Below are positions 46,210-62,625 of a DNA stretch of 64,000 nucleotides, piece after piece. Location: positions 784,834 to 848,833 of the forward strand of contig OZ220677.1 in NCBI GenBank assembly GCA_965116335.1. The letters run 5' to 3'. Each line of letters opens with the position of its first letter. Positions within the stretch are counted from its first letter, which is position 1. This DNA comes from Arenicellales bacterium (GTDB lineage Bacteria; Pseudomonadota; Gammaproteobacteria; Arenicellales; Poriferihabitantaceae). Position numbers and translations under genes: made by a program. The notes below the pieces were generated by a model, which saw only the letters and a list, made by a program, of their open reading frames with translations, had not been told where the DNA came from and ran no database searches.

Positions 46210-46297
46210 GGAGAGTTGGCAGAGCGGTCGAATGCGGCGGTCTTGAAAACCGTTGACTGTAACAGGTCCGGGGGTTCGAATCCCTCACTCTCCGCCA
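46210..46297 (+). tRNA. tRNA-Ser (UGA anticodon)
   Basis: GGAGAGTTGGCAGAGCGGTCGAATGCGGCGGTCTTGAAAACCGTTGACTGTAACAGGTCCGGGGGTTCGAATCCCTCACTCTCCGCCA has acceptor GGAGAGT/ACTCTCC, anticodon loop CTTGAAA, a long variable arm, T loop TTCGAAT and an encoded CCA. Confidence 0.93.
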
Positions 46298-46470
46298 TTA
46301 GGTGTTCAGAATCTGTATGGAATCTGGTCGGATGCGGTTGGTTTAATGTGATGCAAACGTTTGTCATCACCTGATGAAAAAGTTACTATACGCAATCATC
46401 ACATCGTCAATCTTGTGAGAAGATAAGATATGTGCAGTATCCATGTAACAATAATTGCGCGGGCAGTGAG

Positions 46471-47361
46471 ATGAGTAGCTCGCAGCCTGCGCTGAGCCCA
46501 AGTGAGGTGGACTTGACGTCGAAAGTCAAGCGGTTGCAGAGAGATGCTAAAGCACAAATCGTATGTCAAGACAATCTCAAGTTCATGCGTGGGTTACCAG
46601 GTGGGTCAATGAGCTTAATCGTGACCTCGCCACCTTACAATCTACGTAAAACCTATGAGACACGGCAGTCGCACGATAAATACATTGAGACTCAAGCATC
46701 CTGTATTGCGGAAGCTGTGCGTTTGCTTACGCCAAAAGGGGCAATTTGCTGGCAGGTGGGCAATTACGTTGACAACGGTGAAATCTATCCACTAGACATC
46801 TCGCTCTACCCGCTGTTCAAATACCACGGTTTGAAGCTTCGAAACCGTATTGTCTGGTCTTTTGGACACGGACTGCATTGCCAAAAACGTTTTTCCGGCC
46901 GATATGAAACTATATTGTGGTTCACGAAATCGGAGCAATATACCTTCAATCTTGACCCGGTCCGCATTCCTCCAAAATACCCAAACAAAAAATATTTCAA
47001 AGGACCAAACAAGGGCAAGCTATCCTGTAATCCTCTAGGGAAGAATCCGTCTGATGTCTGGGACATTCCTAATGTAAAATCCAATCATGTCGAGAAAACC
47101 GAGCACCCCTGCCAATTCCCTGTAGGTCTCGTCGAGCGCCTTGTGTTGGCACTGACTAACCCAGGCGAGAGCGTCCTAGACCCTTACCTCGGCGTTGGTT
47201 CTTCAGCTATCGCCGCCTTAAAACATGGTCGCCATGCCTTTGGTTGCGACCTGGATCGCCGCTACATCGAGATTGCTTGGGAGCGTATCCATCAGCTTCG
47301 CGCTGGGACGTTGCGTACGCGTCAGATGAACAAGCCCGTGTTCGATCCCTGCACAAAGTAG
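46471..47361 (+). CDS. site-specific DNA methyltransferase, beta-class N4-cytosine/N6-adenine type
   Basis: The catalytic motif IV (LIVTSPPYNL) precedes the AdoMet motif I (VLDPYLGVGSSAIAA), which is the beta permutation of the N6_N4_MTase family. Start set to ATG 46471 (MSSSQPAL). Confidence 0.88.
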   Translation: MSSSQPALSPSEVDLTSKVKRLQRDAKAQIVCQDNLKFMRGLPGGSMSLIVTSPPYNLRKTYETRQSHDKYIETQASCIAEAVRLLTPKGAICWQVGNYVDNGEIYPLDISLYPLFKYHGLKLRNRIVWSFGHGLHCQKRFSGRYETILWFTKSEQYTFNLDPVRIPPKYPNKKYFKGPNKGKLSCNPLGKNPSDVWDIPNVKSNHVEKTEHPCQFPVGLVERLVLALTNPGESVLDPYLGVGSSAIAALKHGRHAFGCDLDRRYIEIAWERIHQLRAGTLRTRQMNKPVFDPCTK

Positions 47362-47366
47362 AATCC

Positions 47367-47831
47367 GTGAAATTAGCATTTACCTACGATGATCATCATC
47401 GCGCGGGAGCTAAGTGGGAAGTACGTAATCTCAAGTACTGGCTGACAAATATCTTTGAAGCACCGGATATCCAAGTTGCGCGGCGCTGTACGCCGGCTAT
47501 ACGCGAGCACGTAGAGACTAAGTTTCTGAACGACGGTTGGGCACTCAACGTCGATCTCGACCAGTCGCATCGACTTAAAATCTTTGCCGAGAAAGACGGC
47601 TTCGCATTCCAACTGCAAACAGGAAATATGAGCCGTGCGCCGTATGACCTGCTTAAAATGCAGTATCTATTTCAAGGCCAACGTATAGATGCCGCTGCTC
47701 TAGCTCTTCCAACCAAAAGTGCTGCACGAAAGATCGGAGATAATATTGCTAATGCAGATCGCGTAATTAGTGAGTTGCAACTCTTCGAGCGAGTGCTTAC
47801 CGTTCCGATTCTTGTTGTTGCCTTTGAATGA
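47367..47831 (+). CDS. small BglII/BamHI-like restriction endonuclease-fold protein (putative R subunit; start uncertain)
   Basis: This is the in-frame part of ORF 47244..47831 downstream of the MTase stop. GTG 47367 is the first plausible start, giving 154 aa. The core EKDGFAFQLQTGNMSRAPYDLLKM resembles the D..(E/Q)xQ-(F/T)GN..(Y/R)DLxK block of BglII/BstYI/BamHI-type enzymes. Confidence 0.5.
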   Translation: MKLAFTYDDHHRAGAKWEVRNLKYWLTNIFEAPDIQVARRCTPAIREHVETKFLNDGWALNVDLDQSHRLKIFAEKDGFAFQLQTGNMSRAPYDLLKMQYLFQGQRIDAAALALPTKSAARKIGDNIANADRVISELQLFERVLTVPILVVAFE

Positions 47832-47846
47832 TGACGTAAAGATAAA

Positions 47847-49184
47847 ATGGCCTATAATTTTAGGATTACACCGCGTGCCGAACGCGAAGCTTTAATCAAT
47901 AGACGACTGGAAAGTTCCAGAGAATTCGGCGAGATTATCTACGATTTCCGGAGTGACAATTACACTCCCAAGGTAATTTCACTGCCCATAGGAATACCGG
48001 TCTACCGTATGGAGAACTGCCGCACGTTCACTGCCCAACAGAACGATATTGCCACCCAAAGTCTGGACAATGACTTCTTTGCAAAGGGACAGGAGTTCTC
48101 GACGGCCCAGCAAGCCCAACATGAAATCTTGTTTAAACTCGCCAAGCAGAGTACCGAATCGGTTACATCCATCTACGATGTTCTTGAGAAGGATGGACAG
48201 CGCGAACCAATTCTGATTACCAGCACTGGAGTTGTAGTCAACGGAAACCGCCGCCTCAGTGCAATGCGAGAATTAATGCGCCAAAAAGACGACTCTGTCG
48301 ATGAGCGATTCAGCCATATCCGTTGTGCAGTTTTGCCACCGGACATCACCCCTGACGAAGTCGATGATATCGAGGCCGATCTACAAGCTAGGCCACAAAC
48401 CAAACTGGACTATGATTGGATTGGTGATGCGCGTCTTATTAGTCGCCAGGTTAACAAAGGTCGTTCGACAAAGGAGGTAGCTGATCGACTTCGGCGTAGT
48501 AAAACCGAAATTGAAAATGTCTTGCAGTCACTCGATGAGGCCGACTTATATTTAACGGAATGGGTCGAGAAACCGAGAGAGTACCATCTCTTGAAAGACG
48601 GAGAGCAAATTTTCAGCGACATCCCTAAAAATATCGACAAGAAAGACCCACAACTTCAGGAAGCTAGTCGTGCTATCGCTTGGTCGATATATGAAAATCG
48701 CGACCGTGTCCCGGGACGTGTCTACAGTTTGAATGCGGCTTTTGGAAGACTCGCGCCGAAGGTGCTGGATATCATTGAAGACCGAATAGATATTGAGCAG
48801 GAGGACAAAGAACATTCGGATGATGAGGATGATTTTTCTATCGACATTGTGGGCGATATCGATGATAGTGGTAAGAATTATAAGCCGATCATTAACGCCC
48901 TCAAGAATGAGGTCACCAAAGACGATACTGTAAATGTACTTCTTGAAGCTTGCGAAACTGCTATCGAGTCTGCAAGAGGGGAAAGGAACGAAAAGGCTCC
49001 ATTAAAGACGCTCTCTCAAGTCCATGCAAGAATCATAGGAATAGATACAAATGCAGCAGGCCAGGACACATTATCCCCTATGCTAAAACAGATTGAGGCG
49101 ATCAGGATAGTTCTCAAAAAGATAGAAACGACTATTCAGATGCGTCAAGCCGGCGAGTCAGCGGGCGACAAATCTGATGAGTAG
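47847..49184 (+). CDS. ParB/sulfiredoxin-like N-terminal domain protein
   Basis: 445 aa with LPIGIPVYRMENCRT ... REPILITSTGVVVNGNRRLSAMREL (ParB GxxR box). It continues with a helical middle region and the acidic tract EQEDKEHSDDEDDFSIDIVGDIDD. Confidence 0.7.
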   Translation: MAYNFRITPRAEREALINRRLESSREFGEIIYDFRSDNYTPKVISLPIGIPVYRMENCRTFTAQQNDIATQSLDNDFFAKGQEFSTAQQAQHEILFKLAKQSTESVTSIYDVLEKDGQREPILITSTGVVVNGNRRLSAMRELMRQKDDSVDERFSHIRCAVLPPDITPDEVDDIEADLQARPQTKLDYDWIGDARLISRQVNKGRSTKEVADRLRRSKTEIENVLQSLDEADLYLTEWVEKPREYHLLKDGEQIFSDIPKNIDKKDPQLQEASRAIAWSIYENRDRVPGRVYSLNAAFGRLAPKVLDIIEDRIDIEQEDKEHSDDEDDFSIDIVGDIDDSGKNYKPIINALKNEVTKDDTVNVLLEACETAIESARGERNEKAPLKTLSQVHARIIGIDTNAAGQDTLSPMLKQIEAIRIVLKKIETTIQMRQAGESAGDKSDE

Positions 49185-51102
49185 CGCCCAAATGCGCAAA
49201 GCGCCGACCTCTGTTGATATTTATTTCAGTCACGATAATACGGGTACACTTGCTATACCGGCAGAAGAACTTGAAACGGCGATCTGGTCACGTCTGAAGC
49301 TATCAATCCGATCAAAAAAACTTCATTACACGATATCAGGAAGCGAAATAAATCTTTCATGGACTGACACCCTCGGCTTAGTGCGCGAATTTGGTAGCCG
49401 AGATACTCAGCAAAACTTGAATTTCCGGTTTAGGCCAAAAGCAGAAGCAGCCGAGAAACTCCGAGCGTTTGCCACAGAACTTAGGAAAACGCGCACGCAG
49501 CGCTCCACACTTACAACCAGCATCCTCCCTGAGGAAATACAGACACGTCTGAAGGATGCAGGATTTTCCAGGCGCGAATTGAAGCCTTTCCAACTTCGGG
49601 ATTTGTCTCATATTCTCTCACTTAGTAACGGGGCAAATTTCTCTGTCCCGGGAGCTGGCAAGACTACTGTGACGTTTGCCCTTCATACACTTACGTACAA
49701 GCCGAACCAATTTTTTATTGTCGTTGCACCAAAGTCTGCATTCCAAGCATGGATTGATGTTGTTGGTGAATGCATGGATGATAACGCTCTGGACAGCCAC
49801 ACTGAATCATTCACTATTTTGGATGGTAGTGACGAGGACACAAGTTTGGCCTTAACTTCTGGAGCTAGTCGGTTTGTTATTTCTTATGACCTCATGGTGC
49901 GCCAGCAGGGAGTACTGACATCACATTTTGCAGTGACGCCAACCCATCTCGTCCTCGATGAGTCTCACCGCATGAAAGCGGGCTGGCAGTCGCAACGCGG
50001 CGCCTTCCTTCTCAGCATCGCCAGCCTCCTGGTCCGGCGGGATATATTGACCGGAACACCTATGCCCCAAGCGGCATCAGACATTGAGTCTCAGTTGGAT
50101 TTCCTCTGGCCCGGCCACGGTCTCGGTTTTGAAGTGGTGAGGGGCACGTCTCCACGGCGGGTCCTGGGGAACCTTTATGTGCGCACTACAAAAAAGGAAC
50201 TCGAACTTCCAAGAGCTGAACGACACTTCATTGATGTGGCGATGGAACGGGGTCAATTGGCACTGTACTCGATCGTTCGTAATGAGTTCCTACGTAATTA
50301 TTCCAAGCATATTTCGCGTGGTATGGGTGATGGGCAATTACTAAAAGCCCGCCGCTCCGTCATGCGTCTCCTGCAGTTATCGGTTAATCCTGTCCTCGCG
50401 TTAAGTGCTATGGCATATGACGATGTGAAGATAGATTCAGCAATAATCGAACAAGTACTTGAGGAAGGTCATTCGGCAAAGATGCGAGCCGTGATGGATC
50501 ACGCGCGCAAACTGGCAAATCAGGGCAACAAATCCGTAATTTGGACGATTTTCACCGACACGATTCACAGCCTCTTTTCGTCGCTTGCAGATCTAAATCC
50601 AGTCTATATTCATGGCGGTGTTTCGTCTGGATCTGCTAGTGATCCTGAGAGTCGTGAAGGTAAAATCCGCCGCTTTCATAAAGATAGTAGTTGTTTTGTC
50701 CTTATCGCAAACCCAGCAACTGCGGGTGAAGGCATTAGTCTCCACAAAGTCTGCCATAACGCGATTTATGCCGACAGGAGTTACGTTTCTACACACTACC
50801 TCCAATCCATCGACCGAATTCACCGGCTTGGCCTCATGCAGAACCAGGAAACACATATACATATCTATCGTTCTAAAGCTCCGCCAGTTATTGGAAGTAT
50901 CGATATGTCTGTGAGCCGAAGGCTGGTCGCAAAAATCCGCAACATGCAGATATTGCTCGACGATCCTGATCTCCATGAAATTGCCTTCGACGAGGAGCAA
51001 GTTGGCGATCCGATTGATTATGACATCGAACTACAAGACCTTATTGATCTTGTTGCCGAACTCGAAGGAACTGCCGGAGACGCACAGTTGGAGGATATAT
51101 GA
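49177..51102 (+). CDS. SNF2/Rad54-family helicase (superfamily 2 translocase)
   Basis: 641 aa with motif I VPGAGKTT, motif II LVLDESHRMK, motif III LTGTPMPQ, and C-terminal motifs ATAGEGISLH and QSIDRIHRLG. It overlaps the upstream gene by 8 nt. Confidence 0.85.
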   Translation: MSSAQMRKAPTSVDIYFSHDNTGTLAIPAEELETAIWSRLKLSIRSKKLHYTISGSEINLSWTDTLGLVREFGSRDTQQNLNFRFRPKAEAAEKLRAFATELRKTRTQRSTLTTSILPEEIQTRLKDAGFSRRELKPFQLRDLSHILSLSNGANFSVPGAGKTTVTFALHTLTYKPNQFFIVVAPKSAFQAWIDVVGECMDDNALDSHTESFTILDGSDEDTSLALTSGASRFVISYDLMVRQQGVLTSHFAVTPTHLVLDESHRMKAGWQSQRGAFLLSIASLLVRRDILTGTPMPQAASDIESQLDFLWPGHGLGFEVVRGTSPRRVLGNLYVRTTKKELELPRAERHFIDVAMERGQLALYSIVRNEFLRNYSKHISRGMGDGQLLKARRSVMRLLQLSVNPVLALSAMAYDDVKIDSAIIEQVLEEGHSAKMRAVMDHARKLANQGNKSVIWTIFTDTIHSLFSSLADLNPVYIHGGVSSGSASDPESREGKIRRFHKDSSCFVLIANPATAGEGISLHKVCHNAIYADRSYVSTHYLQSIDRIHRLGLMQNQETHIHIYRSKAPPVIGSIDMSVSRRLVAKIRNMQILLDDPDLHEIAFDEEQVGDPIDYDIELQDLIDLVAELEGTAGDAQLEDI

Positions 51103-51932
51103 ATGCAGGGATATCTACCGAGCGTGTGTTCTCTTTATCTTGCTTCGAAGGTGTACGCCTGCTGCGATATTATGGAGAAATGCATCCTGAACTTAGTGTC
51201 GCCGAACTTATTGTACTAGTCGAACGTATTGAAGCGGACGGAGCTAGCCTCGATCTAAATGCTTCCGCTCATCTTGAACCTCTTGTCGAACATGATTGTT
51301 CGATGGAGGGCAAGGCGTTCTATCAAGCTTGCATCAAAGCAGTCTTGGTCAAGCACCAGCCGATATGGTCTAGATCCATGCGTTCGGGCCGTGGACGCTT
51401 CACTCGAACACTTAATGTAAATGAACAGGACATTTTTTCTGCTGCTGGTTTGACAGATAATCCTCCGCCGATTGAAGTAGTCCGGTGGTGGGATGATGTC
51501 TCTGGACATGCTCGATTGATAATCGATCAGGTAAAAATGGGGCAGGCTCGCGAAGCTGAACTCCTCACATTGGAGCATGAACGCAACAGGCTTGCCAGTA
51601 TATGTGTTGCGAAGGAACCGGAATGGCCGGGGCTTGATGACAACTACGCAGGATATGATGTGCTGTCTTATGATATAGGAGAATATGGTCTGGTCAATCG
51701 CATGATCGAAGTAAAGTCTACGGTTGCTTCTCCACTTCGCTTCTATGTGACACGCAACGAGTGGGAAACGGCCAAAGATGCCGCATCGGCTTACCTTTTC
51801 CACATCTGGGATATGAAACAGCAACCTCCGGTCCTGTACGTGAGGACAGTTAAAGATGTTGCCCCACACATTCCTATCGACAACGAGAAGGGAAAGTGGA
51901 GCACTACTGAAATTCTGATTGTGAGCTCCTAG
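51099..51932 (+). CDS. DUF3883 (NO VEIN C-terminal, restriction-endonuclease-like) domain protein
   Basis: 277 aa. The C-terminal AGYDVLSYDIGEYGLVNRMIEVKSTVASPLRFYVTRNEWETAKDAASAYLFHIW matches the DUF3883 pattern. A 4-nt ATGA overlap joins it to the helicase gene. Confidence 0.75.
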   Translation: MNAGISTERVFSLSCFEGVRLLRYYGEMHPELSVAELIVLVERIEADGASLDLNASAHLEPLVEHDCSMEGKAFYQACIKAVLVKHQPIWSRSMRSGRGRFTRTLNVNEQDIFSAAGLTDNPPPIEVVRWWDDVSGHARLIIDQVKMGQAREAELLTLEHERNRLASICVAKEPEWPGLDDNYAGYDVLSYDIGEYGLVNRMIEVKSTVASPLRFYVTRNEWETAKDAASAYLFHIWDMKQQPPVLYVRTVKDVAPHIPIDNEKGKWSTTEILIVSS

Positions 51933-51952
51933 TGATCCCTCCCCGTAATCTA

Positions 51953-53171
51953 GTGTCTCGTCATATTTCCTGTGTCGGATATAGTCGTTTTAGTTTGATG
52001 CGTGCGTCCTCAGTTGTGAACTGCCAATCCACCTGAGTCTGTAGGCGGTCCCGTGAGGCTTGCCAGGCAGCGACTTCACGTGCGAGTATATCCATACGGT
52101 CGATACGCCGATTCAGGCATTGGCGGTTCATGACGTTGAGTTCGATTTCAGCCACATTCAGCCAACTACCGTGCTTTGGGGTATAAACGAACTCGAATCG
52201 GTCCCATAGTGCCTTGGCTTGTGCCGGTGGGTAGGCTTCATAGAATGCACCGGGACGGTGGGTATTGAGATTGTCCATGACCAGGGTGATGCGGGTGGCA
52301 TCCCGATAGTGTGCGGCAATGTCGGAGAGGAACTGCGCCCAATCGGTTCGGGTTCTGCGTTCGGTCACTTGGGTCATCCGCTTGCCAGCCAAAGGTTCGG
52401 TGGCCATGAAGACATTGCAGGTTCCACAACGCTGGTACTCGTAGTCGTATCGGGCGGGCTGTCCCGGACCCATGGCAACCGGCGCACGAGTCTCCCGAAT
52501 CAATTGGCGCGGTGTCTCGTCCATGCACACCACCGGGAAAGCGGCATCGTAGGGACGCCGGTAAACATCCAGAACCTTTTCCATCGCGGCGACGAACTCG
52601 GCGTTGCCTTGTGGCGGAATCACCCACCCGACCCGCCGCCATGGCTTGAGTTCGTTTTTTTTAGAACCCGGCGCACGGTTTCATGGGACACCGCATCAAT
52701 GTAACCCAGTTCCACAACCCGGTCGGCCAAAAGCCGCAACGACCATTGCGCGTAACCCGCCGGAGCTTCACCACAGGCCAAAGCCACCAGACGCGCCTCG
52801 AATTCACCGTCAGCCTTACGAATATAGGTGAGCCTGCGCCCTTGGCGGCCTCCTAGCGCCGCATCCAGACCTTCTTCCACAAACCGCTTCTTCACTCGAC
52901 CCACCTTGCGCATGCTGATACGGAGTATGTCCGAAATGGCTTCCCCAGTGGAATGCCGATCATTGAACTCCCCTGCATCGCAGTTGAGCAGGATCAATGC
53001 ATTGATCACCTTTTGCGACCGATGCGAACCCTTGTTCGTGATACTCGTCAATTCATCCCGCTCCGCTTCGTCCAACGTCACCCTATAGCGTTTCATACAT
53101 TCAACCTCGTCTTAACAAGAAAACGAGGAATCTATCATACTATATCCGACATATCATGCATGACGGGACAC
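51953..53171 (-). mobile_element. IS630-family insertion sequence, copy 1 (1219 bp, TA-flanked)
   Basis: Terminal inverted repeats GTGTCTCGTCAT...TGTCGGATATAGT (left) and GTGTCCCGTCAT...TGTCGGATATAGT (right, reverse complement). TA lies on both flanks (51951-52 and 53172-73). I saw no difference from copy 2. Confidence 0.9.
51961..53096 (-). CDS. IS630-family transposase, two frames (OrfA 52620..53096 HTH, OrfB 51961..52623 DDE) bridged by an A8 slippery run
   Basis: OrfA ends ...RRVLKKTNSSHGGGSGG. Slipping -1 on the minus-strand A8 run (52655..52662) reads ...VLKKNELKPWRRVGWVIPPQGNAEF, the canonical IS630 LKPW..W.IPP junction. DDE blocks VCMDE, VMDNLNTH and LNVAEIE are present. Confidence 0.88.
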
Positions 53172-53339: not shown

Positions 53340-53582
53340 ATGAACAAACCTGTCACTCCCGGCGAAATTCTCATTGCGGAATACCTTAAGCCCATGGGTA
53401 TTTCACAGACCGACATGGCTCGCGCCATCGGGGTTGCGCCGAAGACCCTGGCATCTACACTAGCATCCATCACCCTGCAACCGATTCAGGATGGGTATAT
53501 AATGCCCGGATGTCTGAAATTGAAACCACATTGTCAGGGGCGGAAGAACTTGAACTTCTGTTCAATTCTGGAGAGGGCGTGA
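53340..53582 (+). pseudogene. HigA-family antitoxin (XRE HTH) remnant
   Basis: The first ~37 codons ([37 protein letters not shown]) match the HigA N-terminus and HTH. The rest diverges into unrelated sequence that overlaps the next gene. Confidence 0.55.
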
Positions 53583-54739
53583 AGCCCCCGTGGTTTTCCG
53601 GAAGAAAAAAAGAGAAGGACTATTACAATAAAGCCATCCGAAGGCTGGTTACGGATAAACCGCCTGGCGCCAGCATTATTGTTTTTGGTCCGCGTGGGAA
53701 TGGCAAAACATCCCTACTTCGTCATTTGGAGTCGAAAACCAGGGAGGAATATGGTCAGAGCATAGACCTGTTATGGACAACTCCGGTGGATATTTCAAAC
53801 AGAAGCCAGTTAATGAGTCTGCTCGTTTCCGGTGTTGCCGAGAAGGGAATAAAAACCATGGTTAACGCCATCAGCAAACTGGTCAGGATAAGAGTGGAAC
53901 ATGACGCAGGTTTTATTGAAGCAGGTATCCCGGGCATCAAGGACAGAATATATACAAATGAAACCGAGATTTTGAGGGAACGATGCAGGCTGAAACCCTT
54001 TGTGTTGATGATTGATGAAGCGCATGAACTGGACCCGGAAGTGGCTAAAGGGCTGCTCAACGCCAGTCAGAATGTACGTGGCGAAGGATGCAAGTTTTTG
54101 CTTGTTTTGGCGGGAACGCCAAATATCAAAGTGACATTCAGCAAGGCCAGTTCAACTTTTTGGGATAAATGCGCCTGTTTTTCGTTGGGGAGATTATCGA
54201 ATCGGTTCGCTGTTGAAGCGCTTGGCAAACCATTGCTTGACCAGAAGATCAGTTTTACTCCAGATGTGGCAGAAGAAGTGGCTGTGGTGCGCGCGCAGGG
54301 TTATCCGGTATTTATTCAACAGTGGGGCGAAGCCCTCTCCCACAATCTAATCAAAACAGGAAGCAAAACCATTACCATGGATACTGTGATGGCAGTGGAA
54401 AAGGACGTGACCATGCAAAGAAATATGATCTATGAATCACGAAAAACGGAAATAAAGGAAGCTGGATTGTTACTCGTTGCCGAGGCTCTGGCTGCCACTT
54501 TTTCGCAACAGGAACAAATTCAGGTGATTGCAGCCGAAAAAATAATCGAAGATTTTTTGCTGAAAAATCCGTTGCCTGAAACTGTAAATGATCCGGTTCG
54601 GTATACTCTTGAAACCTTTAATCATACCGGATTCATCTGGCAAACAATTGGCGGAGAAAATAACGACATGGATTATTATGAACCCGGCATCCCCAGTTTA
54701 ATGTCGAATATATTGAAAAATAAAGTCGAGGGAGCTTGA
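53510..54739 (+). CDS. orphan AAA ATPase (Arch_ATPase / ORC-Cdc6-like P-loop protein)
   Basis: 409 aa with [18 protein letters not shown]...[19 protein letters not shown] (Walker A) and [11 protein letters not shown] (Walker B), followed by a helical C-terminal half. Confidence 0.75.
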
Positions 54740-56045: not shown

Positions 56046-56086
56046 CATTTGCATAAAGCATCTAAAAATGATACTTTTTGCAAATG
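56046..56086. promoter_or_regulatory. 13-bp inverted repeat (CATTTGCATAAAG ... CTTTTTGCAAATG) overlapping the abiEi start codon; candidate AbiEi operator
   Basis: Read directly; 12 of 13 positions are complementary with a 15-nt spacer. AbiEi antitoxins are known to autoregulate through promoter inverted repeats. Confidence 0.4.
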
Positions 56087-56887
56087 AGATACAACTCTCG
56101 TCAGCTACGCGCCAAGGACTACATAAACGACCTCGCCGCCTCCGGGCGTTATCACTTCCTGTCGAGTGAAGCTCGTGAAGCGCTTGGCGTGTCCGCTGAA
56201 GCGACCAGACTTGCCCTGAACCGCCTGGCTCATCAGAACAGAATCGCTCAGCCCGCGCGTGGTTTCCATGTAATCCTGCCACCGGAGTACCGCTCTGTGG
56301 GATGTCTGCCTCCAGATCAATTCATTCCAGCACTGATGCAGAAGTTTCGGCAACTATACTATATCGGGCTGTTGTCAGCCGCACAGTATCATGGCGCTGC
56401 CCATCATCGGCCACAGGAATTTCAGGTGCTGATAGAAAAGTCACGCCGACCCATTCGCTGTGGTCAAGTACGTGCAATGTTCATTGTCCGAAAGCATCTT
56501 AAACAGGTTCCCGTGCAAAACTTCAATACGCCCCGAGGCACAATCCACGTCTCAACGCCTGAAGCGACGGCCGTTGACCTCATCGGTTATTGTCATCGTG
56601 CGGGAGGACTTGATCAAGTGGCAACTGTTCTTTCCGAGCTTGCCGAACAAATTGATGCGAAAAAACTGGTGACAGCCGCGCAGACCGCGCCTGTCGCATG
56701 GTCGCAAAGGCTCGGATACCTGTTTGAGCGTGTCTGTGCATACGAACAGGTCACCCCGCTTAAAGCATATATCAAGGACAAAGCCCGGCAATCAGTTCCG
56801 CTTATCCCGGGGAGAACTCACAAGGGAGCATCACGCGACGCGAATTGGAAGATTCTCGTCAACGCCAGGATCGAGCTGGACTTATGA
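56084..56887 (+). CDS. type IV toxin-antitoxin system AbiEi-family antitoxin
   Basis: N-terminal winged HTH (EAREALGVSAEATRLALNRLAHQNRIAQPARGFH) plus AbiEi C-terminal blocks (YYIGLLSAAQYHGAAHHRPQEFQV). ATG 56084 preferred over TTG 56078. Confidence 0.82.
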   Translation: MRYNSRQLRAKDYINDLAASGRYHFLSSEAREALGVSAEATRLALNRLAHQNRIAQPARGFHVILPPEYRSVGCLPPDQFIPALMQKFRQLYYIGLLSAAQYHGAAHHRPQEFQVLIEKSRRPIRCGQVRAMFIVRKHLKQVPVQNFNTPRGTIHVSTPEATAVDLIGYCHRAGGLDQVATVLSELAEQIDAKKLVTAAQTAPVAWSQRLGYLFERVCAYEQVTPLKAYIKDKARQSVPLIPGRTHKGASRDANWKILVNARIELDL

Positions 56888-57303
56888 TTCCACATGACTA
56901 CATTACGGAGTGGCGGGCACATGCACCCTGGGTGCAAGATTTCCAGGTAGAACAGGACCTCGTCATCAGCCGAGCACTCATTGCAATTTTCACTCACCCC
57001 GTTCTTGCGAACGCACTGGCATTCCGAGGTGGTACGGCACTCTACAAACTTCACATTCATCCACCAGCCCGTTATTCTGAAGACATTGATCTTGTGCAGG
57101 TCAGGGCCGAGCCAGCTGGCCCGATGATGGACGCGATAAGGAAGGTTCTTGATCCCTGGCTTGGCAAGCCAAGATGGAAGCAGACAGAAGGCCGAGTGAC
57201 GTTCGTCTACCGATTCCATTCTGAAGATACGCCTCCACTAACCCTCAGGCTCAAAGTGGAAATCAATTCGAGAGAGAGGTGGCTCCGTTCATCTGGACAA
57301 TAA
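56884..57303 (+). pseudogene. AbiEii/AbiGii nucleotidyltransferase toxin, 3'-truncated (~139 of ~290 codons)
   Basis: MIPHDYITEWRAHAPWVQDFQVEQDLVISRAL...ALAFRGGTALYKLHIHPPARYSEDIDLVQ is the canonical AbiEii N-terminal half, joined to abiEi by an ATGA overlap. The reading frame ends soon after LKVEINSRE in unrelated sequence. Confidence 0.8.
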
Positions 57304-57701
57304 GATAAATCCGGCCATACGGTTATAGATCAATTTTTTCATTTTGGATTCCCGGTTGTGACCACAAAACCCGGATACGCTCGATTATCCCGGTTTCAGA
57401 ACTGAAACCGGGTTTCTGAACGCGTCGCCGGTTTTCCAAGCTCCACATTTGCCCTGTATCGCATTTTCAGGGGTTACCCTTGCGTTGGTATTCCCGGATT
57501 GCAAGGTTTCAGATTGTGCCGCATTGGACGCGCTGGACGGTGACCATGCCATCCATTGAAACGGTAACCTTCCCGGAATGAATGGCTACACGCTGGACAT
57601 CGACCACCGCCGGATTGCCGGGTTCAGCCTGTACCGCGCTGGATACGCTGGACGGTGACCGCTCCATCCACCGAAACGAGAACCTTCCCGGATTGTCGGA
57701 T

Positions 57702-61403: not shown

Positions 61404-61406
61404 CTA

Positions 61407-62625
61407 GTGTCTCGTCATATTTCCTGTGTCGGATATAGTCGTTTTAGTTTGATGCGTGCGTCCTCAGTTGTGAACTGCCAATCCACCTGAGTCTGTAGGC
61501 GGTCCCGTGAGGCTTGCCAGGCAGCGACTTCACGTGCGAGTATATCCATACGGTCGATACGCCGATTCAGGCATTGGCGGTTCATGACGTTGAGTTCGAT
61601 TTCAGCCACATTCAGCCAACTACCGTGCTTTGGGGTATAAACGAACTCGAATCGGTCCCATAGTGCCTTGGCTTGTGCCGGTGGGTAGGCTTCATAGAAT
61701 GCACCGGGACGGTGGGTATTGAGATTGTCCATGACCAGGGTGATGCGGGTGGCATCCCGATAGTGTGCGGCAATGTCGGAGAGGAACTGCGCCCAATCGG
61801 TTCGGGTTCTGCGTTCGGTCACTTGGGTCATCCGCTTGCCAGCCAAAGGTTCGGTGGCCATGAAGACATTGCAGGTTCCACAACGCTGGTACTCGTAGTC
61901 GTATCGGGCGGGCTGTCCCGGACCCATGGCAACCGGCGCACGAGTCTCCCGAATCAATTGGCGCGGTGTCTCGTCCATGCACACCACCGGGAAAGCGGCA
62001 TCGTAGGGACGCCGGTAAACATCCAGAACCTTTTCCATCGCGGCGACGAACTCGGCGTTGCCTTGTGGCGGAATCACCCACCCGACCCGCCGCCATGGCT
62101 TGAGTTCGTTTTTTTTAGAACCCGGCGCACGGTTTCATGGGACACCGCATCAATGTAACCCAGTTCCACAACCCGGTCGGCCAAAAGCCGCAACGACCAT
62201 TGCGCGTAACCCGCCGGAGCTTCACCACAGGCCAAAGCCACCAGACGCGCCTCGAATTCACCGTCAGCCTTACGAATATAGGTGAGCCTGCGCCCTTGGC
62301 GGCCTCCTAGCGCCGCATCCAGACCTTCTTCCACAAACCGCTTCTTCACTCGACCCACCTTGCGCATGCTGATACGGAGTATGTCCGAAATGGCTTCCCC
62401 AGTGGAATGCCGATCATTGAACTCCCCTGCATCGCAGTTGAGCAGGATCAATGCATTGATCACCTTTTGCGACCGATGCGAACCCTTGTTCGTGATACTC
62501 GTCAATTCATCCCGCTCCGCTTCGTCCAACGTCACCCTATAGCGTTTCATACATTCAACCTCGTCTTAACAAGAAAACGAGGAATCTATCATACTATATC
62601 CGACATATCATGCATGACGGGACAC
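61407..62625 (-). mobile_element. IS630-family insertion sequence, copy 2 (same orientation as copy 1, offset 9454 bp)
   Basis: All six ORF-track translations are identical to those of copy 1 and the nucleotides match wherever I compared them. TA flanks at 61405-06 and 62626-27; A8/T8 run at 62109..62116. Confidence 0.9.
61415..62550 (-). CDS. IS630-family transposase (two frames, A8 slippery run), copy 2
   Basis: Identical to 51961..53096. Confidence 0.88.

Follow-up and report, generated by a model that had tools for sequence, protein, structure and literature searches.

A mobile five-gene cassette with a ParB/KorB-like protein and a degenerate BamHI-fold protein, a candidate restriction-like defence system

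A 64,000-nucleotide stretch of contig OZ220677.1 from an Arenicellales bacterium (assembly GCA_965116335.1, positions 784,834 to 848,833 of the forward strand; the window, within which all positions are given) carries at 46374-51932 a single mobile cassette of five genes, which we lean towards reading as a modification-controlled restriction-like defence system driven by nucleoside triphosphate (NTP). On the plus strand it encodes, in order, a ~296-residue (aa) N6/N4 DNA methylase, a 154-aa BglII/BamHI-like protein (the proposed reader), a ParB-like protein, an SNF2-family ATPase and a nuclease of the NOV_C/DUF3883 type. The cassette probably represents a restriction-like anti-phage system of a kind not described before.

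Conservation of the five-gene unit

The initial annotation of the window, made from its letters alone, had described the last three genes as a translationally coupled triad that acts as one unit. The three open reading frames (ORFs), at 47847-49184 (445 aa), 49177-51102 (641 aa) and 51099-51932 (277 aa), are borne out, as are their 8-nt and 4-nt overlaps, which could be read directly at the junctions. The stop codon TAG of the ParB-like gene lies at 49182-49184 and the ATG of the SNF2 gene at 49177, giving the 8-nt overlap; a second ATG at 49192, which would leave an 8-nt gap instead, is an equally plausible start because most SNF2 homologues are 636 aa long. The SNF2 stop and the NOV_C start share the ATGA at 51099-51102, and a GGAGG lies 8 nt before it. 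The three genes are indeed conserved together and diverge together, but the unit had been drawn too narrowly, as it comprises five genes here and in most relatives. The two genes in front, taken initially for a separate neighbouring restriction-modification (R-M) pair, belong to the same cassette in ~94% of loci and co-diverge with the triad.

The same five-gene string stands beside every ParB-like homologue looked up in unrelated genomes. A first locus scan, with one genome per species, gave 45 loci, and every one of them with enough flank has all five genes in the same order. A second scan added 80 metagenome loci, down to 35% identity in the ParB-like protein, and the loci of both scans were scored with hidden Markov models built here. 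All five genes are present in 81 of the 86 non-redundant loci with adequate flank, so that the three families first grouped as neighbours recur together far beyond chance; the methylase is found in 85 of the 86, and 79 are colinear on one strand. The gaps or overlaps between genes in the colinear loci measure 5-15 nt, and no shuffling of partners is seen down to ~35% identity. The non-redundant loci come from at least six phyla, and more than 1,000 protein clusters carry the cassette. The hosts of the 45 loci of the first scan are scattered over Alpha-, Beta- and Gammaproteobacteria, Nitrospirae, Planctomycetes, Bacteroidota and Latescibacterota.

For each of the five proteins a pairwise-distance matrix was compared with the others across 92 loci; all five correlate at r = 0.72-0.97, against a maximum of 0.24 in permutations. 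The ParB-like protein correlates with the SNF2 protein at r = 0.967, with the NOV_C protein at r = 0.947 and with the reader at r = 0.875, and the methylase correlates with the other four at r = 0.72-0.79. The methylase is the most conserved member (mean pairwise distance 0.24), followed by the reader (0.33), whereas the ParB-like (0.48) and NOV_C (0.50) proteins are the most divergent. Altogether, we consider it likely that the five form a single system that acts in conflict with foreign DNA.

In blastn comparison with the closest relative (locus L006), which has different flanks, homology begins at 46374 and ends exactly at the NOV_C stop codon at 51932. Since homology to this differently flanked locus ends there, and the DNA outside is unconserved in distant loci, the transferable unit is 46374-51932, ~5.56 kb, consisting of a ~100-nt leader and the five genes. 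The leader (46374-46470, plus strand) contains a promoter-like site, the sigma-70-like TTGTCA-17-TACTAT at 46361-46389, although such matches are no commoner here than in shuffled sequence. Among the more distant loci no DNA outside the ORFs, including the upstream region, is conserved, and a search for a conserved operator or parS-like site in or around the cassette found none.

The variants of the cassette bear on how its parts belong together. In a second architecture (loci L137, L138 and L139), which occurs among the most divergent family members, the order is reader, ParB-like, SNF2, NOV_C and, last, methylase; the similarity of these ParB-like proteins to that of the window is confined to the N-terminal ~300 residues. 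The reader gene keeps its place immediately in front of the ParB-like gene, in many cases overlapping it, when the methylase has moved, which argues that it works with the trio and is not merely the partner of the methylase. The methylase lies on the opposite strand in L053 and L135, and four loci (L051, L052, L111 and L122) are without a detectable reader. At L122 (4680-5819), the reader-less cassette is found directly beside a GmrSD_N (DUF262) gene, a ParB-superfamily component of Type IV restriction. A third architecture, on plasmids of Rhizobium, Mesorhizobium and Azospirillum, has a ~285-aa Cys-rich protein before the trio and is without a recognisable methylase. As the trio also occurs with this unrelated front-end gene, the ParB-like, SNF2 and NOV_C genes are the older, deeper core, and the methylase and reader form a front end that defines the large clade of the window. 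On a Streptomyces plasmid, the ParB-like and helicase genes are present, and the only gene seen upstream of the former is a divergently transcribed helix-turn-helix (HTH) regulator.

The ~285-aa front protein of the plasmids (L145 530-1396, L146 503-1348, L056 5132-5974) is translationally coupled to the ParB-like gene, contains the motifs IQKGCPDGAHSS, IFHN..CG and RPCPK and has no Pfam match; a hidden relationship to the reader was ruled out (hhalign probability 0.4). The plasmid-borne ParB-like genes are named partition proteins by PGAP, and were dropped as an independent comparator because they proved to be members of this very family, with its helicase gene next in line. An apparently fused long helicase at L104 was a contig running into phage tail-fibre sequence.

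Two independent systems could also lie side by side here, an ordinary Type II R-M pair whose BglII/BstYI-type endonuclease is active through a non-canonical site and a separate trio of ParB-like, SNF2 and NOV_C proteins, linked through the clustering or joint movement of defence genes or with the trio serving as a back-up layer. Such a pairing would fit those plasmids on which the trio has neither methylase nor reader, and the few loci in which the reader is missing, and auxiliary effectors beside R-M-like systems are a described theme (PMC12839542). However, the colinearity of 79 of the 86 loci with their tight junctions and constant partners, the co-divergence of reader and ParB-like protein and the constancy of their neighbourhood when the methylase relocates all argue against it, and the active site of the reader, described below, adds to these points. 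We therefore regard two separate systems as rather unlikely.

Domains and active sites of the five proteins

The methylase (46471-47361, plus strand) is a beta-class N6/N4 DNA methyltransferase, matched by PF01555 at 8.1e-50 and by the PADLOC model MTase_II at 2.7e-78. Its longest ORF starts with the GTG at 46432; the ATG at 46471, giving 296 aa, is the probable start because the homologues are 294-299 aa long and align from about residue 14 of the window ORF. Motif IV is an invariant SPPY, which suggests that the enzyme may target N4-cytosine.

The reader gene (47367-47831, plus strand) begins 5 nt downstream of the methylase. The window protein scores 24.8 bits against the Pfam model Endonuc-BglII, just below the cut-off of 26, while precomputed Pfam matches (PF09195/PF02923) exist for its homologues. 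A profile of 29 family members searched against the PDB retrieved BstYI (1.6e-4), BamHI (1e-3) and OkrAI (4e-3). In these alignments the catalytic strands EFETGN of BamHI, EVQFG of BstYI and EWETGN of OkrAI fall on the segment QLQTGN of the reader, so that Q82-L-Q84 stands at the active-site position in place of E-x-E/Q. Among 106 unique sequences, the equivalent of BamHI E111 (residue 82) is Q in 88, H in 17 and C in one, and never D or E, and the equivalent of E113 (residue 84) is Q in all 106. The candidates for the upstream aspartate are acidic in 85% of these sequences by BamHI spacing (residue 65) and in 0% by the OkrAI alignment (residue 73). By contrast, G86, N87, R90, D94 and K97 never vary, and T85 and S89 hardly do. 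The motif Q/H/C-x-Q-[TF]-G-N is also found in readers of only 28-36% identity, and the loss of the glutamates is therefore old and fixed. N87 aligns with N116 of BamHI, a base-contacting residue.

E-to-Q mutants of restriction enzymes, such as EcoRI E111Q, can bind their site tightly without cutting. From its residues, the 154-aa protein appears to have lost catalysis, a reading we hold with fair confidence, and it is probably a sequence reader, sensing site and methylation state, rather than a nuclease. Several points speak for residual activity, and with it for an active R-M enzyme beside a separate trio. D78 (93% conserved), D94 and E136 (both 100%) are candidate substitutes that could form an alternative catalytic site, PD-(D/E)xK enzymes can relocate catalytic residues, so that lost carboxylates are no proof of inactivity, and the side chains of Q, H and C can ligate metals. 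The NCBI annotation, moreover, labels the small protein a BglII/BstYI family restriction endonuclease. Against an active enzyme stand the absence of both glutamates from all 106 sequences and the lack of an invariant acid at either candidate aspartate position.

The initial annotation had assigned a ParB/sulfiredoxin-type domain to the N-terminus of the 445-aa protein (47847-49184, plus strand). Sequence searches alone gave a mixed picture. The Pfam model ParBc PF02195 matched neither the window protein nor the plasmid members, TIGR00180 reached 14.3 bits (cut-off 58), and neither the protein nor its profile retrieved anything usable in a sequence search of the PDB. However, PHROG ParB families match residues ~100-150, one of them covering residues 85-353 at 4.3e-8, and the Pfam family ddrB-ParB PF18763 matches 22 of 105 family members (E <= 0.01). 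An AlphaFold2 model built from a diverse 105-sequence alignment reached a pLDDT of 92.4 and a pTM of 0.86; an earlier model from a shallow 20-sequence alignment (pLDDT 56) was discarded. Structural similarity search of the PDB with Foldseek returned as its best matches KorB (8qa9, 2.5e-4), Spo0J of Thermus (1vz0), pNOB8 ParB-N, Bacillus ParB-CDP (6sdk), Noc (7ng0) and Caulobacter ParB (6t1f). Each aligned over 200-265 columns, with a Foldseek probability of 1.00 and E-values of 2.5e-4 to 1e-2 (KorB, Spo0J, ParB-CDP and Noc), and the viral library returned phage ParB/Spo0J and DdrB-like proteins. Because the matches extend from the N-terminal nucleotide-binding domain through the HTH region behind it, the protein looks like a complete ParB/KorB-type NTPase-plus-HTH protein; the domain call stands, but its scope goes beyond a ParB-nuclease domain.

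The ParB-like protein is laid out as an N-terminal ParB/Srx NTPase fold, an HTH at residues ~191-239 and a helical C-terminal part. Nine residues (R54, N57, R59, G133, N134, R136, R141, E176 and W191) are invariant over 105 sequences of 22-62% identity. The stretches G133-N-R-R136 and E176-x-x-L-Q180 presumably correspond to box II (GERRxRA; G-N-R-R...A in this family) and box III (ENLQR; E176..L179-Q180), respectively. The nucleotide pocket is conserved, and binding or hydrolysis of CTP, ATP or GTP is predicted from these motifs. Proteins of the ParB-CTPase fold are described as binding CTP, ATP or GTP in many contexts (PMC12704722). Between the conserved body and the C-terminal helices lies an acidic loop at residues 318-341 (window 48798-48869), which is variable in length, has a pLDDT of ~61 and is the least conserved stretch of the protein.

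The best structural match, to the CTP-dependent repressor clamp KorB, also raises a role outside the effector complex, in which the ParB-like protein would be a KorB-like nucleotide-gated transcriptional controller, taking the part of a C-protein and timing the expression of the methylase and of an SNF2-NOV_C restriction enzyme. The HTH and the absence of a separate C-protein from the cassette are in line with such a controller. However, no operator-like DNA is conserved upstream across loci, the protein is large (445 aa), and its fast divergence, in near-lock-step with the SNF2 and NOV_C proteins, fits interacting effectors better. A purely regulatory role is thus improbable.

The 641-aa protein (49177-51102, or from 49192; plus strand) is an SNF2-family ATPase, a double-stranded DNA translocase, as the initial annotation had it. 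PF00176 scores 42.3 bits against a cut-off of 24.9 (6.7e-11) and Helicase_C PF00271 27.7 against 23.5 (3.4e-6), and the nearest solved relatives are DDM1/HELLS and ISWI. The Walker A motif GAGKT, the DExH box, TGTP and QxxxRxxR are conserved in 50 sequences. The N-terminal extension of ~130 aa noted earlier is present and remains unplaced. The 277-aa protein (51099-51932, plus strand), the right edge of the unit, carries a PD-(D/E)xK nuclease domain, confirming the earlier NOV_C/DUF3883 assignment (PF13020, 53.8 bits against a cut-off of 22.1, 2e-14). The domain is C-terminal, with D187 ... E204-V-K206, and the N-terminal ~150 aa are unplaced. Among 50 NOV_C sequences E204-V-K206 does not vary and D187 is kept in at least 90%, and through the shared domain the protein matches the single-gene PADLOC candidates PDC-S36 (4.4e-10) and PD-T4-1 (4.8e-7). 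All sequence motifs quoted in the initial annotation were found in the window proteins. The methylase, SNF2 and NOV_C proteins retain their catalytic motifs and look active.

Genomic setting and mobility

The cassette lies in an AT-richer island next to a tRNA-Ser gene, as previously noticed, with a G+C content of 0.47-0.49 across 46-52 kb compared to 0.50-0.58 in the preceding core genes. The tRNA-Ser(TGA) gene found by ARAGORN at 46210-46297 (plus strand) is a likely integration site of the island; a search for att-like repeats of its end found none. Downstream, the insertion sequence (IS) elements and toxin-antitoxin debris mentioned in the initial annotation were identified as an IS630-type element and an AbiEi gene with a truncated AbiEii. 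The IS630-family element (HTH_32 and DDE_3 domains; 51950-53100, minus strand, right boundary approximate) abuts the 3' end of the cassette.

A second IS630 copy is present, at least its first 300 nt being 100% identical at 61404-61703. The two copies, with HTH_32 and DDE_3 ORFs, bracket ~9.4 kb that contain an AAA ATPase, a GCS2 ligase and AbiE remnants, an arrangement resembling a composite transposon. The ATPase (53340-54739) is a 409-aa AAA_22/AAA_16 protein, ORC-Cdc6-like or STAND-like, which follows a short overlapping HTH_3 ORF; its similarity to the defence models mad8 and DS41_1 is at P-loop level only, and it could be a fragment of a defence gene. At 56078-57303 an AbiEi antitoxin (269 aa) is followed by an AbiEii truncated to 152 aa, which spans profile positions 2-112 of 238, so that the type IV toxin-antitoxin pair is a decayed one. 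An imperfect 76-nt direct repeat (79% identity; 57505-57580 and 57620-57695, 115 nt apart) lies in a region of short ORFs.

In other genomes the cassette is surrounded by serine or tyrosine recombinases, IS66, IS21 and IS110 elements, phage genes, RadC and toxin-antitoxin genes. The 139 ORFs scanned in the flanks of 24 loci include integrases, transposases, relaxases, HipA and a number of defence genes, namely one complete Qat system, NERD with UvrD, DpdB/DpdE-like genes and mad3; no neighbour is conserved. The cassette is thus mobile cargo in otherwise unrelated elements, and the support that its defence-island setting lends to a defence function is moderate.

The carriers themselves are seldom phages or plasmids. 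No full match was found among 50,697 phage records, and five loci among 2.9 million viral contigs. The 72,556 plasmid records yielded one full-length match (at least 80% of the query), on a 1.7-Mb Paracoccus replicon, and five others, all of the divergent third architecture found on plasmids, that span about half of the query. Being nearly absent from phages and rare on plasmids, the cassette is not readily explained by a housekeeping role for either.

The same data bear on whether the cassette serves the mobile element itself, as a maintenance, partition-like, anti-restriction or addiction module in which the ParB-like protein handles DNA, the methylase protects transferred DNA and the SNF2 protein acts as in polyvalent proteins. 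Phages and conjugative elements encode polyvalent proteins in which ParB, N6-methylase and SNF2 are hub domains (PMC5512222), fusions of ParB with a methylase show enrichment in prophages (PMC12704722), the cassette often has integrases, relaxases and IS elements as neighbours, and PGAP calls some family members partition proteins. Nevertheless, no ParA-like gene occurs in any cassette examined, no replicon is found in the cassette and no conserved parS-like site in or around it, a dedicated and intact nuclease is on board, and the near absence from phages, the rarity on plasmids and the cargo-like placement in unrelated elements do not fit a module of this kind. We hold such a role to be very improbable.

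Related systems, proposed mechanism and implications

The initial annotation had stated that the gene combination matches no named system. This held for PADLOC-DB 2.0 (2023), NCBIfam 20.0 (2026) and the searchable literature, but a partial relative exists in Hma. The window ParB-like protein has zero matches in PADLOC-DB 2.0 and its 105 relatives only scattered ones (E > 1e-4), NCBIfam 20.0 offers nothing that matches the trio at family level, and no paper describing this gene combination was found. Nor is it described in five surveys, which deal with the ParB-CTPase fold (PMC12704722), ParB-DUF262 sensors (PMC12065111), polyvalent proteins (PMC5512222) and BREX- and Dnd-related systems (PMC12839542, PMC10853773). 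PD-lambda-5, which gave weak PADLOC matches to a few family members, is a compact prophage system of R-M and Abi type and was set aside.

Hma (HmaA/HmaB/HmaC; Payne et al. 2021), studied in Halomonas meridiana (PMC11232893), is the closest described system. It shares with the cassette an SNF2 ATPase with a NOV_C effector, a methyltransferase gene in the operon and an island location. HmaA, a fused SNF2-Helicase_C-NOV_C protein, protects against T4 on its own, and in the presence of Mn2+ plasmid DNA is nicked by its NOV_C part (PMC11232893); an older comparative study had noted an SNF2 helicase-DUF3883 fusion in R-M-like operons with a DUF499 ATPase (PMC3710099). The two differ in several respects. 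The SNF2 and NOV_C parts form one protein of ~1180 aa in Hma but two genes, separate in every locus examined, in the cassette; HmaB is a DUF1156-type methylase, compared to PF01555 here; HmaC is a DUF499 ATPase, of which the cassette has no counterpart; and Hma lacks the ParB-like and BamHI-fold proteins. The PADLOC Hma models did not match the cassette proteins at E <= 0.1.

The front end resembles Type II R-M systems of the BamHI/BglII/BstYI/OkrAI family, in that a beta-class methylase with SPPY adjoins a BamHI-fold protein that retains the TGN base-contact segment and the YDL..K helix. Unlike these enzymes, the reader has Q/H/C-x-Q and no invariant preceding Asp, is only 154 aa long compared to 194-213 aa for the matched solved members, and is embedded in a multi-gene unit with an ATPase and a second nuclease. 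The ParB-like protein, in turn, shares with the ParB/Spo0J, Noc and KorB clamps the N-terminal fold followed by an HTH, a box II of GxRRxxA type and a box III-like E..LQ with an invariant Glu. It differs from them by an insertion of ~60 residues between the first conserved Arg motif and box II, by its long helical C-terminus, by partners that are a motor and a nuclease and by the absence of ParA, a parS-like site and a partition context.

ParB-DUF262 sensors (GmrSD, SspE, DndB and Menshen NsnA) sense modified or phosphorothioated DNA (PMC12065111), and likewise place a ParB-superfamily NTPase domain and a DNA-binding domain before an ATPase and a nuclease. However, the cassette protein belongs to a different ParB clade, lacks the DUF262/DGQHR motif and PADLOC matches to those families, and its partner ATPase is SNF2 rather than ABC. 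With DISARM, Type I/III R-M, Dpd and Zorya, the cassette shares the logic that methylation marks self and that an ATP-driven translocase and a nuclease attack unmarked DNA. The SNF2 protein gives partial matches to the DrmD, DpdE and ZorD models, at 20-27 bits against equivalog cut-offs of 500-1500, its C-terminal match to the DrmD-type NF038317 scoring 26.7 bits against 610. Nevertheless, the cassette has none of the DISARM genes DrmA (helicase), DrmB (DUF1998) and DrmC (PLD), and the signature genes of Type I R-M (HsdS/HsdR), Dpd (DpdA-C) and Zorya (ZorA/B) are also absent. For mad1-8 of MADS and PglZ/BrxC of BREX, PADLOC and NCBIfam gave no matches beyond partial SNF2 similarity.

On the single-unit reading, we propose the following mechanism for the cassette. 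The methyltransferase would mark a short, probably palindromic host site, probably as N4-methylcytosine. The BamHI-like reader would bind this site only when it is unmethylated, without cutting, and thereby flag incoming DNA. The ParB-like protein would then be recruited or loaded at the reader-marked site as a nucleotide-gated clamp, and the clamp would license the SNF2 motor. The motor, finally, would deliver the nuclease with which it is translationally coupled, NOV_C, and the DNA would be nicked or cleaved, the two proteins forming a split version of HmaA. The specific chain of clamp loading, from reader through ParB-like clamp to SNF2-NOV_C, is put forward tentatively. Equally conjectural is the idea that a disarmed Type II enzyme, with E-x-E changed to Q-x-Q, may serve as a protein 'parS' that loads a ParB-type clamp, which would amount to a new class of restriction.

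Several observations weigh against the cassette as a defence system of this make-up. Its defence function is read from domains and context, and many of the flanking genes are housekeeping or metabolic, so that the flanks are only partly defence-like. Co-divergence is a measure of co-inheritance and is weaker than physical interaction. Fold similarity is what points to the clamp or licensing role of the ParB-like protein, for which the roles of nuclease, regulator or NTP depleter may be named as alternatives. The reader is not universally required, and the trio can work with other partners, since there are reader-less loci and a plasmid variant without recognisable methylase or reader. In addition, a later name for the cassette may exist, as the comparison was made with PADLOC-DB 2.0 and NCBIfam 20.0.

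If the cassette restricts phages or plasmids, it would be a widespread addition to the modification-based defences represented by Type I/III R-M, DISARM, BREX and Hma, bringing in two parts unseen in such a role, a ParB/KorB-type nucleotide switch and a homologue of a restriction enzyme that appears to read rather than cut. The proposed mechanism, if true, would give a ParB/KorB-type clamp its first role in defence, would be the first case in nature of a dead restriction enzyme employed as a specificity subunit, and would further extend the biology of the recently broadened ParB-CTPase fold. The public labels "BglII/BstYI endonuclease" for the reader and "partition protein", given by PGAP to some ParB-like members, would then need correcting. 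A DNA reader that binds tightly and in a methylation-sensitive manner but does not cut is possibly a useful tool, and the cassette as a whole would offer a natural test case of how the recognition of a site is passed on to a motor and a nuclease.

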